Positions 1 through 23,135 of a stretch of DNA of 64,000 nucleotides are shown here, piece after piece (position 1 is the first letter of the stretch; every line of letters begins with the position of its first letter). The stretch is taken from positions 193,776 through 257,775 of the forward strand of contig JAQULM010000002.1 of assembly GCA_028718605.1 (NCBI GenBank). The letters are read 5' to 3'. The notes beneath the pieces were generated by a model, which was given only the letters and a program-made list of their open reading frames with translations, had not been told where the DNA came from and ran no database searches. Position numbers and translations under genes: made by a program. This DNA is from Patescibacteria group bacterium (GTDB taxonomy: Bacteria; Patescibacteriota; Patescibacteriia; UBA10025; JAHIVO01).

Positions 1-3000
1 AGGTCCTGCTTGGCCGCGTTTTTATCATTGAAGGTAAGATCGCCGTCGAATATCAGCACACCGCTGGTGGCTGATCGGGTAAAGGTTGTGCCGCTCTCAA
101 GCATGAAGTTGCCGGCGACATTCAGGTTTCCTGCATCAGCCTGCTGGAATTTTCCCGTGTCATCGAGCAGGAACGCACCGTTCACGTCCATCGCGTCAGC
201 CGCCTTGACGTCGCCCGTACCGGTAACGGAAAAATTCTCAAGCCCTTCACCCGCCGATGTCAATGTCTTTTGCGGCGCGCTCCCTGTCATGATGAAAGTA
301 TTGCCCGTTCCGGGATTATAATCGCCGTCAGTAAAATCAACATTTCCGCCAACAGTCCAGGCGCTCGTGCCACTATTGATAACTTCCATACCGCTCCCGA
401 CACCGAGGAAATCGACATCGCCGCCAATCGTTACGGAGGGATTATTATCATACCCGATGAGGCCGATATTCTGGGTATTGTCAGCGCGCAGGTAGAAATT
501 CCCTCCGATAGTGTACGCGCCGGACGCGAGGGAAACGGTCGTTGACGACACGAGGTCCCGATTGTTATAAATTTCAACGTCTTTGCCGTACGTGCGCGCA
601 TCAATCGTCGTGGACTCAATCGCGCCCTCGGTGGAATCATAGAGCACGTCGGCGTCCATCGTGCCGGTCGTCCCCGGCCCGCATGACGTGCTAGTAAACC
701 GCATGGTACCGTCGCCCGTCACGGTGGCAGTACCGCTGAGAATAAAGGCCATGCCAGTATGGCTTACTGTCTGGCCGCTTCCGATTGCGAACGTATCCCC
801 GTTATTGACCTGAAGCACCCGCGATACGGTAAATCCGGTGTTCTCGGCAGTAACCGTTGCGCCCGTGCCGTCGAAAACAACGTCATACAGCGTCTTGCCG
901 CCCGCGTTGATTGTCGTACCGTCGCCACGCATGCGGAGCATGTTTGTTCCGTGATCTATCGATGCGGTTTCGTCAATGGCCAAGTCCCCATACAATTGCA
1001 CGCTCCCCAGATTATAATCAGGCGACCCGGATGCCGGCGAAAGGACAAGATTATGATAGTTCCCGCCGGTTATATTAGTGGTGTCCGTTCCCCTGAATCG
1101 GAACGTTGATTCCTCCGAAGTGTAATTTGATAAATAGAGGACATTATCTTTAATCGGTGTACCGCTACCGAGGAGGGTCCAGGTCTTGCTCACGCCGCTT
1201 GCCGCAGAGAGGTAATGGATGCTGCTGCAAGACTCGCCACAGCCACATATCTGCTGGCTAAACTCGCCCGCGATTTCAACCTCCCCCGTACCGACACCGC
1301 TCGTGGTGTAGTCGGCGCCGCTGCAGAGAGCCCCGAGCCCGAACATAAGGTTATTGAACGTCCACGTATTGCTCGAGTTGCTGAAATTACCGGTACCTCG
1401 GATTTCAACCGTACCGCCCCCCATGGTAACTGTTCCGGCACCGGCAAAATCACCGCCGATGACAGTCAAGTCTGAAGTGCCAGCGAGGGTGGTACCGGAA
1501 CCGATTGACACATCGTTGTTGATGGTCGCGGTGGAAGCAACCGTCGTCGTACCGCTCCCTGAGGTAGTGAGGTTATACAGCGTGACTGCCCCAGACCCGC
1601 CGCCCAGGTTCCCCGTGCCGGACATTGTGACGGTCGGCGTACCCGAAGTTGTATTGATGATACCGGTTGTGGTAGTGGTCAGGTCACCGCCGTTGACAGC
1701 TAGGTCGGCATTAATATTGAACGTGGAATCGGTGCCAACAGACACGTCGTTCGCGACCGTGGCCGGTGAGGTTAGAGTGGTGGTGGCGGTGGTACCGCTC
1801 CCAACGGCTACATTATAAAACGTGATGGACGGCGAAGAACCGCCTCCGATAGCCCCGGTTCCGGTCATAGTGATGATTGGTGAGCCAGTGGTATAGTCAA
1901 TGGTCGGCGAGGTGCCCGTCAGAATAATATCGCCGCCGTTAACAGTAACATCGGAGTCCATGTTCACTATCGTTGAGTCCACGGTGATATCATTGGCAGC
2001 GATGATATTGCCATAGGCATGCGTATTAATCATGTCGCCGCCGGTAAAAATAATATTGCCAAACGTACTATTGATGTCGGCAGACAGTGTCGTCCCCGTA
2101 CCATCCATCTCCAGTACGCCGCCGCTCTCCGCGGTAAATACCCCGCCGCCTCCCGGCTCACCGGTATAGAAGAACTCCACATTACCGGAAACCGTCCATT
2201 GCCCGGCGCCGGTGTTTACCGTCCCTGTCGCCGCTGCGCTCAGCGCTTCAAGATTACCGGCGATGGTTACTGTCGGATCATTCGCAGCCCCAGTCAGGGT
2301 CATGTGGTCCTCCCCAATCACGACATTGCCGGAAAAAATATAGGTACCAGCCAGCATAGTGACCGATTGGGGCGAAGCGGATGCGGCAGTATTCTCGAGC
2401 GATACGTCTCCTCCGTAGGTCCGGGCGTTCATGGACTGGTTGCCGAATTTCCCGTCAAATGCCAAGTCAGCAGTAATGGTGCCGCCGGTAGGAAAGGCGT
2501 TACTGATAGAATAGTACCGCAGGATTCCGTCGCCTGAAATCGTGCCGGTAAGCGTCAGAGAGCTGGCGCTGTTTAGGGAAAGGGTTCTGCCTGAAGCGAT
2601 TGAAAGGGTGTCGTTCGCCGCCACGGTGAGTGTGCCGGAAACGCTGAGATCAGACGCCTGGAGCGTGATGGTGCCGGTTGAAGACGGGTTGATAGTTACG
2701 TTGTTAAACGCATTACCGCCGCCGGCAATCGTATTGGCGGTGCCGGTCATGGTCACCGTGCCGCTGTTATGGGTAAACGTACCGCTATTGGCAAGGTTGC
2801 CACCGACCGAGAGCGTATCGCCGGGCGCCGTCACGGTGCCGTTGGTAATCGTGAAGTTATGGGTCACGGTTGTCGGCTTATTCGCGAAACTCCATGCCCC
2901 GCCCGTACCATCAAAAGTGACATCGTAAAAAGACGAAGAGCTATTGTCGATGGTTTCCCCGGACGTGGTCGATGTAAATGAAATATTCTCTGAACCCGCT

Positions 3001-21000: not shown

Positions 21001-23135
21001 AGAGTAACCGTACTGCCTGCCAGCAAATCAACGTCCCAGGCGACAGATCGGACGACGTCGGTGCCGTTATAGTACGGCTGGTTGCGGCCGCCGTTCTCCG
21101 GCTTGACATCAAAATCGATCGGAAACTCCTCCTTGATGGTACCGCGGAAATCGTCCCGCACCGTCACCTCGAGCCTCATCGGCTGGTAAATGTTCGGGAA
21201 CACGCGAGTCGGGCCAAACCGTTTTACCGTAAACTGAGGCGCATCCTCTACGATAATAGTGTCCGAGAGCGAATGCGAGGTGCCCCGCACAGTCGCTACG
21301 AGATCAAGCGTATACGTGCCGGTGGCACCTGTCTGGTAGGTACCACTATAGTCCGGCTTCTGGTAGAGCTCTTTTTTCGTGCAGAAATCCGTGATTGCAA
21401 TACTTCCGTCAGCAGTCTTGAGCTCCGTTTTCTTGCCGCGCGGATCAGTCACCGTGAGGACTATTTCCGCATCACATACCGTTTGGCCAATATCATCAAC
21501 CGCACCAATCGAAACGGTTGCCGTTTCGCCTGCGTTGTACAGGGTTTGGTCAGGATTCATGGCGAGCGCTCCCCAGCTGAAACTCTGGCTGACAACCTCG
21601 GTCGTCGTATCCTGGGTCACTACCATGGTTACCGTATACTTGCCAGGCCTCGTGAACGATTCCGTATCAAACGCATAGGCTGCGGTAGTGACGCCGTCAT
21701 CTTCGCCCTCCGCGATGGTAAGCGGCGCATCCACTTCATTGCCGAGGGGGTCAAAAACGCGAACATCGTTCACGGTACGCTCTTTGGGGCTCGCGCCGAT
21801 AAAACCAAGAGGTGATTTTTCCTTCACGTCTATTTCGATCACCGGCTGCTCTCCGGGTGTAACGTCTGGCTGCTTAACATTCACGCTCCCGTGGATTTCC
21901 TCCGCGACTGGATCGGGTTCCACGAGCTCAAGGTCGAGGCGGACTCCATCAAGATACGCGATACTGCCCTCCGCCGCCGCGACCGGGTTGTACGTGACGC
22001 GGACAGCAAGGCTGGAAACGACCGACGTTTTCGTTATCTCGGGAATCGCGTATTTCCAATAGCCGCCATTCGATGAATTGCTTATGTCTTCCACGAGTGC
22101 AGTTGAATCGAGCACTTTCCATGTCGCACCGTCCATCGTATAGGATACCGTGAGAACGTCTTCGTTATTCGTAAAGCTATCAGCGGCGAGCGACAGCATA
22201 ACATACGCGCTCTGGACAGGCGTGTCCGCTACAATCCCCGCTGGCAATAGAAAGTCATTCGCTTCGAATACGGGGTCAACTTCCGTAAGGGCGCTCGGAT
22301 TTTCAATGGTCGTTTCTTCGCCAAGTACCATGCCCCCCGCATTCACTGCCGCATTGACCGGAATATCATCTTGTTTGGCGATATTCGTATTCGCTGATTT
22401 GTCGGATTTTATTTTTTCACTTGCCGGCTTGGCAGTGTTCGTTTTTTTAGGTGCCTCCTCTTCTGGGGCAGCGACGGGCACTTCAGTCGACACCATGGGC
22501 ATATTGTTGTACACCGCTGAGTTACCATCAGTAAACACTGAAAGCTTCGAATTGCTCAGTGCGTCAATATGCTTTGCTCTATCGGGCGCTTCCCACCCCT
22601 GGACGCGGGTCGGTTCAATACGGACTACCACTGGGGGTTTCTCTTCCGCACGGGCAAGATAAACATACGTAAAAAATGAAACTTGAACGATAACAAACGT
22701 AAACGCGACGAATGCCGTGGAGTAGACAAATACGGAAAACTTCCGGCTGATGAGCAGCAGCTTCAGATACTGCAGGGAAAAACCTGGTTTGATGATATAC
22801 GACTTCGGTGCCGGCGCCGGTTGCGGCTGCTTTTTCTGCCTTGGCTCAGGCTTCGCCCCATGGGATGCGTCAGGCGGGGGTGATGCCAGATAGAGCTTCC
22901 GGATAACTTCACGGTCATAGCGCCGGTCTCGGCGCGGGCCAACCCTCATTGCGGACAGCTTGCCGGACTTATCCCAATTGCGAAGCGTGTTTGGGTGCAC
23001 ACGAAAAATCTCACTCACCTGATCGATAGTGAGGAGCTTTGGAAGGGAAGTAAAGTCTACTTTTCCCCTGTCGGCATCGTCCTTCCTGCGAGCGAAGAGA
23101 TCCCCTATTCCCTTAATAAGCGCCGGAAGCTGCAC
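1..23135 (-). CDS. giant (>7,700 aa; 3' end beyond window start) membrane-anchored surface protein: N-terminal MerR/excisionase-type HTH, one TM helix, then beta-helix-like repeat arrays, Cna-B/CarbopepD-like modules and phage tail-collar-like modules
   Basis: Hand translation of the minus strand in the frame whose codons occupy + positions 3k..3k+2 is stop-free in every stretch checked: 23144->22621 codon by codon, 20400-19980, 19960-19740, 18000-17820, 6635-6480 and 180-3. It reads as protein, e.g. TLTGASGQTLTVSGNFTNSGTFTHGSGTVLLAGSAQQTVTGTITFSTLTV at ~17.9 kb. An in-frame TAA at 23147-23145 bounds the 5' side. The frame is still open at position 3, so the ORF leaves the window, which explains its absence from a closed-ORF track. 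The numerous 60-300 aa V/P/L/T-rich + strand ORFs across 1-22.9 kb are antisense shadows of it. Start codon is uncertain: in-frame GTG at 23135, no in-frame ATG before the HTH, first ATG at 22949, and no obvious SD. Confidence 0.72.
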   Translation of the reverse strand, partial: MQLPALIKGIGDLFARRKDDADRGKVDFTSLPKLLTIDQVSEIFRVHPNTLRNWDKSGKLSAMRVGPRRDRRYDREVIRKLYLASPPPDASHGAKPEPRQKKQPQPAPAPKSYIIKPGFSLQYLKLLLISRKFSVFVYSTAFVAFTFVIVQVSFFTYVYLARAEEKPPVVVRIEPTRVQGWEAPDRAKHIDALSNSKLSVFTDGNSAVYNNMPMVSTEVPVAAPEEEAPKKTNTAKPASEKIKSDKSANTNIAKQDDIPVNAAVNAGGMVLGEETTIENPSALTEVDPVFEANDFLLPAGIVADTPVQSAYVMLSLAADSFTNNEDVLTVSYTMDGATWKVLDSTALVEDISNSSNGGYWKYAIPEITKTSVVSSLAVRVTYNPVAAAEGSIAYLDGVRLDLELVEPDPVAEEIHGSVNVKQPDVTPGEQPVIEIDVKEKSPLGFIGASPKERTVNDVRVFDPLGNEVDAPLTIAEGEDDGVTTAAYAFDTESFTRPGKYTVTMVVTQDTTTEVVSQSFSWGALAMNPDQTLYNAGETATVSIGAVDDIGQTVCDAEIVLTVTDPRGKKTELKTADGSIAITDFCTKKELYQKPDYSGTYQTGATGTYTLDLVATVRGTSHSLSDTIIVEDAPQFTVKRFGPTRVFPNIYQPMRLEVTVRDDFRGTIKEEFPIDFDVKPENGGRNQPYYNGTDVVRSVAWDVDLLAGSTVTLGYTFKSPEKSPALYALGPAQAGDWQEHRAWQLAIDPAYMYLLATSGTAADGWTNQTTYDGASAVFLRGAATYGGTGGTATHTPTVTGATVAQTTTGLAHTCLRSCTARAAYSHAHTTTAPTAGPADNNPAFHSFYLWKSNAQNPTTIPQNTFMFSSASQSGSWTRFSAADSRLVKLTNSHTTGGSDTHTHGMTSWGSLAASTGTYNVGLVFADVPPSYSVNSHTHAAPANSTSDSKTSVPPYVQTMIYQQTNATPQSIPQNTIGMFDADPGTNWDVISDASPYQNNFVQGFSTESGTGGSATHDDTAATATVAGATTDSYFSTGTNVAPDDHTHTVTATITAGSDHTPPYVNFVMAKCTATGGCSGASISGNVYSDEGSTLISGTPTIRLLVNGTNTACGGGACTATVTSGAYTISNITTVSGDVLTLYLDTDGTPLATTVTVGTGSDLTGIDLYQNDLIVRYETGSSITNTQILTGYGTYADTDILYYTAGTPALTVGNLTNSNIELHIWTSKTYAPAGTVTTQGTGGLHIDDSGAMTTGGATSIAQNLAIDTSGLLTVEAYDLTVTGTTSITGTLTISNPTGTKIFVGAVTVNAGGTWTNSGDSDVTFRGGLTNNSANTFTAGPGTYTFDTNAQAIGGTNEISLTIVTVTGVTLTNNGTLTVTKGLAGTGGLTNSATGTLNISFSGAVGITTLTASAVGNTVNYMYGGAQTVKATAYHHLGFGTSGAKTLTSLTTVKGNLTWSGTATGTATSALAVTGNLIIDDTANFSAGAVNLTVSGTTSITGTLTFNSATGTKTLSGAVTINDGGTWKNSANEGFTFRGGFTNNSAVSHTWGTGVYLFNLSDQAIGGTNAISVANMTVNLCTLTNNGTLTVSTALAGSGILANSATGTLNINGTSTITTMTATAVGNTVNYTGGSQTVHSNAYHHLGLSGSGTKILTGITTIAGNLTMAGTALATTISGTSIGGNLTVGSGTACALTQGAGPLGVTGDVSIGATATLTGASGQTLTVSGNFTNSGTFTHGSGTVLLAGSAQQTVTGTITFSTLTVTNSSGSDPQTSPSVIFADGTDYSTGTLNVTTGNAKLRFPVGPTYSFTVSTTLNLNSSTSDKIYLRSNDSGIAWLFNVPASQVVYDVDVSRSTASASIDASDASNVNSLFNTNWNFGSLTISGTAYTNETGTTLNSSGGSIKLVNSTTGATFSDADGTDGSGAWSIAGVTGTTAGDILTIWINDTTADGTLVLKYGASCTDAPNCTGLSIYQNRVILRNEHSGSIANSDLASCDNDTGTNCTGDTEIGFTSNSNAMLVNSNLELHIWTGDTYDPGGTVTTQGTGDLHVDDSATASLDTTGNTIGNNIAIDASATLTVEANTTVTGGADGGVSTAGILNHTAGTFTIGDGTDEDLTITGGTATLGGGNTVIKDDINHCTAGTLNINAGSNVDVLSTSGILNMGNGCSATAVLNLAGGSLDVGNHMFLDAGTVNLSGGTHRAGVSADGIVELARYANGGMTFNMTGGELIGRAVIVYNNETLTTTTVSGGTLTVDDLIGGLDTAAWYQWSDDSPKFYNLKFNDTANSFNSSNLLTYLNGSLTNTSGTLTASSRSVTIEGNFTNGGTFVPGSGTVSMVGTGSINGESDTTFYNLTIGDATAGTVTIEGSEDPTITTGGTLNIDTGDTLSISAGRRLTHSSTVAITFNGTISGAGTLRFNNLSAGPGSGGTLSSVVRFDATSADITSTIFDARTYGGPVEFYASNVDLGAFITAPASGTFTFSSSVTTTCSGCIGGLTLDLDDTTDPTVSIGGAFTIGASTVVLAPSSTTLTLNGNLTDNGTFTHDAGTVLMASTGDVQIDGSSDTSFNNLTLGDGSSYRGVVVASGGTNDPTVAGTLNITATTQVEIETGRALTLASTGTLTFPNNSSILGSGTFVYKPTTAFPTTGTLSWSTTIRFDATAGNQTMSARTDYGPIEIYSTNVSPMSVIAGAGTLTLHSTLDITTVYSAVTLDLNTNDPTTTITGAITINEAGVLSAPSTVSDTAFRVLGDYTNGGTFADNGGQMTIAGTGAQSFSGSLDGMSNFGAVEVTNTNATGVTFNGFFELTGAFTATQGGTHLNFDSGGWYVNGALTLTGASGNLIYLRSTSDGTYYPTYFYSTISVSYVDVRDSDASVWAPVYASNSVNSGHNLDWYFAVTMSGSVYQTDENTKITSAAKTVVLVVDGSTTACGGGACTAETSSGDWTINNVMVQSGSNVLVYLDGETEKATTVVASTGAATSGIALYQDRLAVRADNTGTITNANIFTAKGVVSDTDILYSGTSPNLTVSSGIELHINGSDSLDPGGTVTTQGTSGNVHVDDAGAMYTDTATSVIAGGVTIDAGSSFSVGATTTVALDITIADSATLGGTGDLTVNGGDITGTGTIYFTAGTVTLGASGNLGVDASNTLSSLRISGPTTTATHSMTISGTLTVDASSVFSVNVSKTIKVTTSISLGGTITGDGILVYYGSTAFPGTGTMSIAITYINPKNNNQSITARTFTGDVIVGTLGTELLGGARIVTMLAGSFTVIGDLKMIDDPTTTLTLTAATNDPSVAVSGDLTIAGTNGHTTLNAGASTWTVSGSAHFGVGGETPANGVFTAETNGTLIMNGTGTLKSTSDDTYYHVTLSGADVTIASGGTVTMNGDLVLSDTVTATGSTVKMTGTSRTITGGSQTLANLEIDPSSSSTITLQTSALAVAGTLTVASGDTLSLSVVGLTHSGTTDIAGTGTISGTGTLIFNSTTTGGPGTAATITVPVRFDASAGSIPAAVFDARTYGGTVNFYSGSGTARTVTSAASGTYTFSGAVSTTCSSCGGLTIDLDDTTDPTVAFSSTLTVGATTTLTPPSGTTMTVVGAAAINGTLSGSGSITANGGWTGSGIVTLSAGTFTHNVSTSVGFGSTSGSNDWTFYNLTHTNPVSSTPTVTYSAGGTGKIIVSNAYTITNDHVMSDALVVTDNTNDRNLDVNGDVTLSGFCQFTLSNSATFTVGGSWSFTGGMASAPTGSTVTFDATTTGKTITPSGSFYNVTFAGSGGAWAFTEGAQLNGALNITLGAVTAPPSDTLTVNGNFTNSGTFTHGSGTVLLGGASQQTVTGTITFSTLTITNSSGTDAQTDPSVIFASGYNYSVGTLNVTTGNAKLRFPVGPTYSFAVTSTLNLNSSDSNKIYLRSNTAGTQWRFNVSGSPVVYDVDVKDSNAIGSTIDATDSSNVDSTNNTNWTFSAVLTISGTIYTNEGSTTYNCSTDNLTVTLKVNGLGSYSNTCTSSGGTYSISSVTAAAGAVVTVFLDGETPDAVTVTRSSGSNLTGINLYQNRVIVRHEDAGPTSNANLGQYDYDDDTDIPFTSNSNNLVVNDGAKLYIWGGDTLTPGGTITTSPASDCSGADGDIYIGASATLNMAANALSAGGDLVAGEGTLSYSGTPTATFTATGVGCTLTGDISFYNLTFNGSGGGWSWDQSNTVSVDGAVTVTAGTVSGGGNLTINGGGFTGNGTVNLTTTGVVTMNETGNLGGTTPWTLASLTVATGETVTTTGDITVSNILIVSATNAISIGSGTSLTMSGSSFSFGGTLSGSGTFIVSGQPAFPTNGTISCPVRFDITDQPSGYQIGGRTFGGNVDFYSYDTSLKQIQLGTDFSQTFTFIGDFNITAANNGGMQVLANTYDPTVNITGSIDYLGAGSGTEYLAPGAGTWTVTGSIDFSLGSSNSTGVFVMNGASVNFYGASLTVTSLTTTGTGTVTVQSAVMIGTLTVGSGTTLNANAGVTVTGSATGDGILTYSSGTPTFTLSGTGSLGGDTGWTFYNLTLSISSSNLTTTAAGGGIMTINGVLTTSCADTNFDDACDVYHTLNLGTKTWTLANVAASSAPFVNQGRIVGSTSVFIYAGSTSLNIASATNATTNYYYDLRLQPTDTATFTLPYASSGNPLRVNGSLLVGNGTNSVTMTGTAQNTNIAVGTDFSCTAGASTTVETGTGTWTIGGHLDLTNCDTFTATSGHTFTMTGASKNYTSGGQTIYNLTTSGSASVTVATNAATLSGNLTVGSGTFLYADQSVTVNGGSITGDGTITYSTGTPTVTIGFVGNYDDGQIGGDSDWTFYNLVFQQTGSNAGDITTAIGSGSMTVDNVMTIQGYAATCMIMEGRNDCRHLLYAGAKQWNFTDSGTPLVSTSGMFSPQTSTVRYTGTGATNIASTTYGSLSFYRLYLQPSGAGNPAYTLPSTLIITNNLLIGDGVNAVTVNGTTNNPSSTIGGNLSCTAGATNTINSGTGTWTIGGNIDLTACTYTATANNTVRMSGASGTITAGGTAFYNFGANGTLSTVTGTDFSVTNTLTVYSSKELAIETSRTVTVTSTGSVTLSGTISGAGRLTYQSGNTFPATGTISCVMRYDATTAGVNPDVITRAYGGDLELYTNATDSTRTFYLGTVAGTITVGGSFYIISDNGFAASVNGDTYNPALDITGGFYLMENSTGSAEISTGTGTYTVAGSVNFGTGGFYASNLLKMTGTSKTLTSGGNSMNSFEVASGSTTMVGAAALTGTLTISGGILTAPSGGALSVAGSFLNTGGTFTHNNSSVSLTTAAAASVSGNNTFYDFTIQPGAAKTVTFADGSTTTVTHTLIFDGDSGQVVTLKSQTNDVHWNLKMNGTSQTINYVSVRDSDACSGTYNIQAYDGTNSNVSNNHCWDFTFITVSGITDSTLCDQTVAIAVGDDRLPQTDQITCEGTYPFSIMIGAQSADAIISVWVDGVGEASEATAITKYDGSGDITGMVLTPHSLTLGSTSESATISKTNLTQAYNRYYDEDIVHGYPIDQSNQYGPGWNELLWPIDYSDDYDDERFRVLSGTTFTMTSTWGEENGTFDSLETHDLLNEGTITITNDGKGPTFKIGGSWTTTGTFNQDISQVQFLSATTETIAPGGQPFYDVFFNNAAGSWNNTAAMSVLNDLTHAAGLVWGSQDVTVNGDVQCFGTCGSLVFTGGTFTQSVAAARNFGSDGLESTWSFNNLTFSGSTYTVTAQGTGTNTVGGTLTVSAGNTLDAGAKTWALTHNGSPLVIGGSVTPSTSTFSFTGGNSTFVPDATYYNLEVKPSVNGASHTLSNDQTGEITINNNLTIGDGDHFGCTVTGAAFLMDLDVNNDVTIISGTSFVAPGSYATFTVGGNWTGDFFTHSSGTVTFDANTTGKTISNMSNWNNIVFNNANGGWSFTDGATLVGDLTVAAGTLSGTSSIDIQGGDFTGAGIVNLTGGTVTLGNASGTVGGTGASPATDWNLNNISLTAPSPCTANKTTSTASGASKMKIAGQITGGSCSCGDECSFHHILNPGAKTWELSYSGSPLVSLTMTGGTSLFRYVGSGMTVNAGAFSYYDLEIDPVSETTYTFESFYVSHDLTIAPPAMLTVDYGTSVIAVGSDGVTSTLDAGGQTLNTIGTNISSGAETLNLVSNLTLASKLNIGATDTVSIDTGHTVTVLYSDNASPGISIGGTLTGDGNVIYRDNTDVTGTTINCDFQYDAKDLGGNVTINPRTWGADLEFENTGTTSSLSYVLDSGTHTLSSGNLTVKSTGTGGITLDGATNNPTVTVTASNLSFGSDTNSKTVTTGTGTWTFGGNVDFTGTNATFTATSGNTLKMNGSSKTLTTAGQSLHHFEVSAGSTTMSGTTTLNGTLTVSGGTLTAPSGGTLSVAGSFLNTGGAFVHNNSTVYLTSTGAAAISGDNTFRNLSVSGIGGAKTITFANGSITTVTNSLTFNGASGQVVTLQSQTADTAWYLNMNGTAQTIHYVSVRDSNACSGTYHIRAYDGTNANVSNNQCWDFSSVTVSGTSNASDDTIVAAAINSSRQAQTGSVANGEWTITIGTPTAGDTITVWLDLVDLAAESTAITKFVSGNITGMALSANVLSVGGSGTPSLDGSDFNKYDAGYDEDVMFDCISAAGYTINLDGGGPYESEKLSILPNTTVTLEQVGGGTPRSDYLYTHDLEVQNGGTLANSGGPGLYVSGSWSVGTSGTYTAGSENISFTSTTSGETIDNSSSSFYDVTFDGTGGAWSFANKPTTVTHNFTITNGTVTAPGDTLSVGGNLANSGTFTHNSGTVTMTGTANTIAGGGNAFNNVTINPSSTGTITLQASDLSVSGTLTVAANDTLSIASGRTLSLNSASSLTLTGTISGDGILRYYSISNAFPTGGTITADLAFDGKFGNQSMNARTYGGDVSLENTAASASPQSVTMLAGTYIFSGNVVIGEDHMTLTGAANDPTVTIAGNLEALSAAATGTVNTGAGQWTVSGNVEFFYTGEPGGGGVFTAESGGVLEMDGTGTTLSADINSTFGNIIFTGGDMINTHAYGNIIAANDITVDSTIVNMDSDVTVNGGDIILTGTSPTIDYTTGSPIITMTGTGAIGGGSSPSITFYNVAVGSGTTATTTLTSPATVANDVSVGTDSTFNINADLAVNGGDLTTTTTGIINTTSGTPTVTMSGTGNLGGGSGAVTLYNLTTSGSGTTTVASTATINNDVSIGSGTTLAGTSDLTVIGGDFAGAGTVTMGGGTVEIRGTGNFSNSSNTWTFNNLMFGLGALCSGADYTTSGVGTGEVEIAGEFSQQICGCGESCSSIHYLSAASGVSKTWTLLGSGTPIKDNVLYLSNYTSEESTFRFRGTDTTNITGGNYHNLVLSPASGSPDYNLGSVQLYGDLAIDETASIDHGTNMLRMRGDGTTINAGGKTLYDVVFDGTGATVTAENTGFTVSRVLQVNNGDTFAIGSGQTVSHTGMAFILSGTATVTGDGTMRFTSTSCGPGTTGTMDADVLYDSTEGAIESTTIDARTYGKDVEIYNNRDLVSSTTVSLASGAYTIGGNFYLRADNTQNIGLIGYDNNPSVTIGGDVDFLGVGSGMEVINSGTSAWTVGGNVDFTDGDYNPGTGNTFIMTGSAPQKTLTSAGEGLENFSVTGTGDVKAADAMDVNGAFLLDDTGKFQQADAGNLNVAGNFMLESGTTFTRSATSGVLIFDGDLTFNDKNAAKQD
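3300..4100. repeat. ~800-nt module duplicated at ~6650-7500 within the giant gene
   Basis: Antisense ORFs 3594-3684 / 3709-4095 are collinear with 6936-7032 / 7219-7497, e.g. SQHWLLLTLALVPSYARMWYVPLQALESRTDT vs SQQWLLLTFELVPSYAWILYVPEHASESRTET. Offset ~3.35 kb. Confidence 0.6.
10860..11900. repeat. dispersed ~1-1.3 kb module duplicated ~6.2 kb downstream (partner 17080-18130), ~65-75% nt identity
   Basis: gcagtttggcattgccagttgtcacattcagcgtccc (11.52 kb) vs gcagcttggcgttgccggttgtgacgttcagggtgcc (17.74 kb). gtgaacgtgccggaattggtaaagttgcc vs gtgaatgtgccggaattggtgaaattacc. Flanking 300-400 nt are also collinear. Confidence 0.65.
18205..19465. repeat. tandem ~630-nt (~210-aa) duplication inside the giant gene (unit 1 ~18205-18835, unit 2 ~18835-19465), ~75-80% nt identity
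   Basis: Antisense ORFs 18262-18480 vs 18892-19116 and 18487-18846 vs 19117-19314 are collinear paralogs. Direct nucleotide comparison agrees, e.g. ttcagcgtgccggtagcgctgttggccagg vs ttcagggttccggtggcgctgttggtcagg, and gtcaaggttcccgtaatagacgtggtgccgctgactgtcag vs gtcaatgtcccggtaatagacgtcgtgccagtaacggtaag. Confidence 0.7.
19745..19900 (-). other. Cna-B / carboxypeptidase-regulatory-like beta-sandwich module with Cys-rich insert (recurs at ~10.95, ~14.1, ~17.15 kb)
   Basis: Hand translation 19960->19740: VNFVMAKCTATGGCSGASISGNVYSDEGSTLISGTPTIRLLVNGTNTACGGGACTATVTSGAYTISNITT, with the G-x-V-x-D-x-x-G-x-P-hydrophobic-x-G-A-x-V-x-L ... T-x-x-x-G-x-Y pattern. Nucleotide-level paralogs are visible at 14080-14300, 17170-17400 and 10960-11200. 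Confidence 0.4.
19990..20900 (-). other. two to three phage tail-collar-like (MdpB-like) modules inside the giant protein
   Basis: Hand translation 20400->19980: ADVPPSYSVNSHTHAAPANSTSDSKTSVPPYVQTMIYQQTNATPQSIPQNTIGMFDADPGTNWDVISDASPYQNNFVQGFSTESGTGGSATHDDTAATATVAGATTDSYFSTGTNVAPDDHTHTVTATI, continuing ...HTPPYVNFVMAKC. The repeated I-G-x-x-x-x-x-x-x-P-x-G-W ... G-G-S-x-T-H ... H-T-H ... P-P-Y-V signature matches the phage tail collar / microcystin-dependent-protein fold. Confidence 0.45.
22656..22739 (-). other. single transmembrane helix (signal-anchor) of the giant protein, preceded by a Pro/Lys-rich linker
   Basis: Translated: ...PEPRQKKQPQPAPAPKSYIIKPGFSLQYLKLLLISRK-FSVFVYSTAFVAFTFVIVQVSFFTYVYL-ARAEEKPPVVVRIEP...; a 28-residue hydrophobic stretch flanked by basic residues. 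Confidence 0.7.
22887..23036 (-). other. HTH_17 / MerR-excisionase-type helix-turn-helix DNA-binding domain at N-terminus of the giant protein
   Basis: Translated directly: LLTIDQVSEIFRVHPNTLRNWDKSGKLSAMRVGPRRDRRYDREVIRKLYL. This is the classic L-T-hydrophobic-x-E-hydrophobic-A-x-x-hydrophobic-x-V-x-x-x-T-hydrophobic-x-x-W pattern with K-x-G-x-L-x-A-x-R-hydrophobic-G-x-x-hydrophobic-R-hydrophobic signature. Confidence 0.75.

Follow-up and report, generated by a model that had tools for sequence, protein, structure and literature searches.

The giant surface protein (8,379 residues) of an uncultivated Patescibacteria bacterium raises the question of whether a helix-turn-helix (HTH) domain encoded ahead of its export signal is truly part of the translated product and, if so, whether this domain stays tethered to the membrane.

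One frame from HTH to ectodomain

In the window, that is, the whole 64,000-nucleotide stretch of DNA analysed, a minus-strand frame without stops runs from 23144 to position 1, at the window edge (7,714 codons), and contains the HTH peptide LLTIDQVSEIFRVHPNTLRNWDKSGKLSAMRVGPRRDRRYDREVIRKL. The preliminary description had recognized an HTH_17 motif in this frame upstream of a transmembrane helix, and profile scores bear this out, with 33.0 bits for HTH_17 and 31.9 bits for MerR_1 (Pfam curated cut-offs of 27 and 21.6, respectively). The nearest counterparts of the winged HTH (Table 1) are Streptomyces BldC and a phage Xis, and the predicted DNA-binding domain belongs to the BldC/Xis type. The proline-rich linker and the one transmembrane helix proposed to follow it were both found, and no other hydrophobic segment is present among the 7,711 residues of the giant protein visible in the window.

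Table 1. Features of the N-terminal region of the giant protein (residues counted from GTG 23135)
Feature	Residues	Nucleotides	Strand
N-terminal part of the giant protein, start codon to end of hydrophobic core		22656-23135	minus
Winged helix-turn-helix (high confidence)	30-85		minus
Disordered Pro/Lys-rich linker	86-120		minus
Single hydrophobic helix	134-160	22656-22736	minus

As originally noted, no in-frame ATG lies upstream of the HTH, the sole in-frame GTG or TTG being GTG 23135. Translation begins at this codon, the counterpart of the ATG start in relatives: the window's VQLPALIK aligns with MRLPAILK at the start of one of them (P0003). The 8,379-residue product is likewise annotated from it in NCBI record GCA_028711455.1 (contig JAQTSE010000001.1). 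The region is base-for-base identical in two independent run-level assemblies (SRR22315508 and SRR22315506), which rules out an assembly indel as the origin of the long frame. Comparison of the HTH codons with those of 11 orthologues (pN 0.16-0.27, pS 0.54-0.97) shows strong purifying selection, far beyond chance. HTH, linker, single hydrophobic helix and giant ectodomain lie in one translated frame.

Spread of the architecture

The fusion is conserved, being present in 25 of the best 150 family representatives and in 12 metagenome loci; the placement of an HTH in front of an export signal defines a widespread Patescibacteria family and is no one-off. The architecture had been considered undescribed; full-text searches of the literature returned no description of an HTH fused ahead of the giant protein's export signal, but in databases the HTH-fused family already carries an automatically assigned name, "helix-turn-helix domain-containing protein".

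A separate upstream HTH gene in orthologues, previously proposed as evidence against the fusion, was not found within 3 kb of the giant-family genes in three HTH-less relatives. The same HTH subtype does, however, form separate 60-residue genes immediately upstream of other large secreted-protein genes. These split versions occur with another secreted-protein family; they favour a functional link of the HTH to the surface protein and do not speak against translation of the HTH. Tandem repeats of 9-10 bp (TTGkTAAGT) lie close to the promoter in the fused and the split versions alike, and almost exclusively adjoin genes of this HTH subtype.

Most likely, the HTH is a built-in regulator of a very costly surface-protein gene. 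Made together with the surface protein, it would bind DNA and act as a dedicated autoregulator of that protein's own gene.

Signal peptide extension or permanent anchor

A ToxR/CadC/RodZ-like topology had been put forward for the giant protein. Its N-in/C-out orientation is compatible with the charges N-terminal to the hydrophobic helix (28 K+R against 13 D+E). Permanent tethering of the HTH is doubtful, however: the helix terminates in an invariant Ala-x-Ala (the invariant Ala being A163, ARA|EE), 11 residues before the first conserved ectodomain motif. HTH-less relatives have classical short, ordinary cleavable signal peptides with A-x-A at the position equivalent to A163, and because of this correspondence the HTH seems to extend a predicted, presumably cleaved signal peptide rather than to form the cytoplasmic part of a lasting ToxR-like anchor. 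The type of DNA-binding domain also departs from the proposed models, being OmpR-type in ToxR and XRE-type in RodZ, whereas that of the giant protein is BldC/Xis-type.

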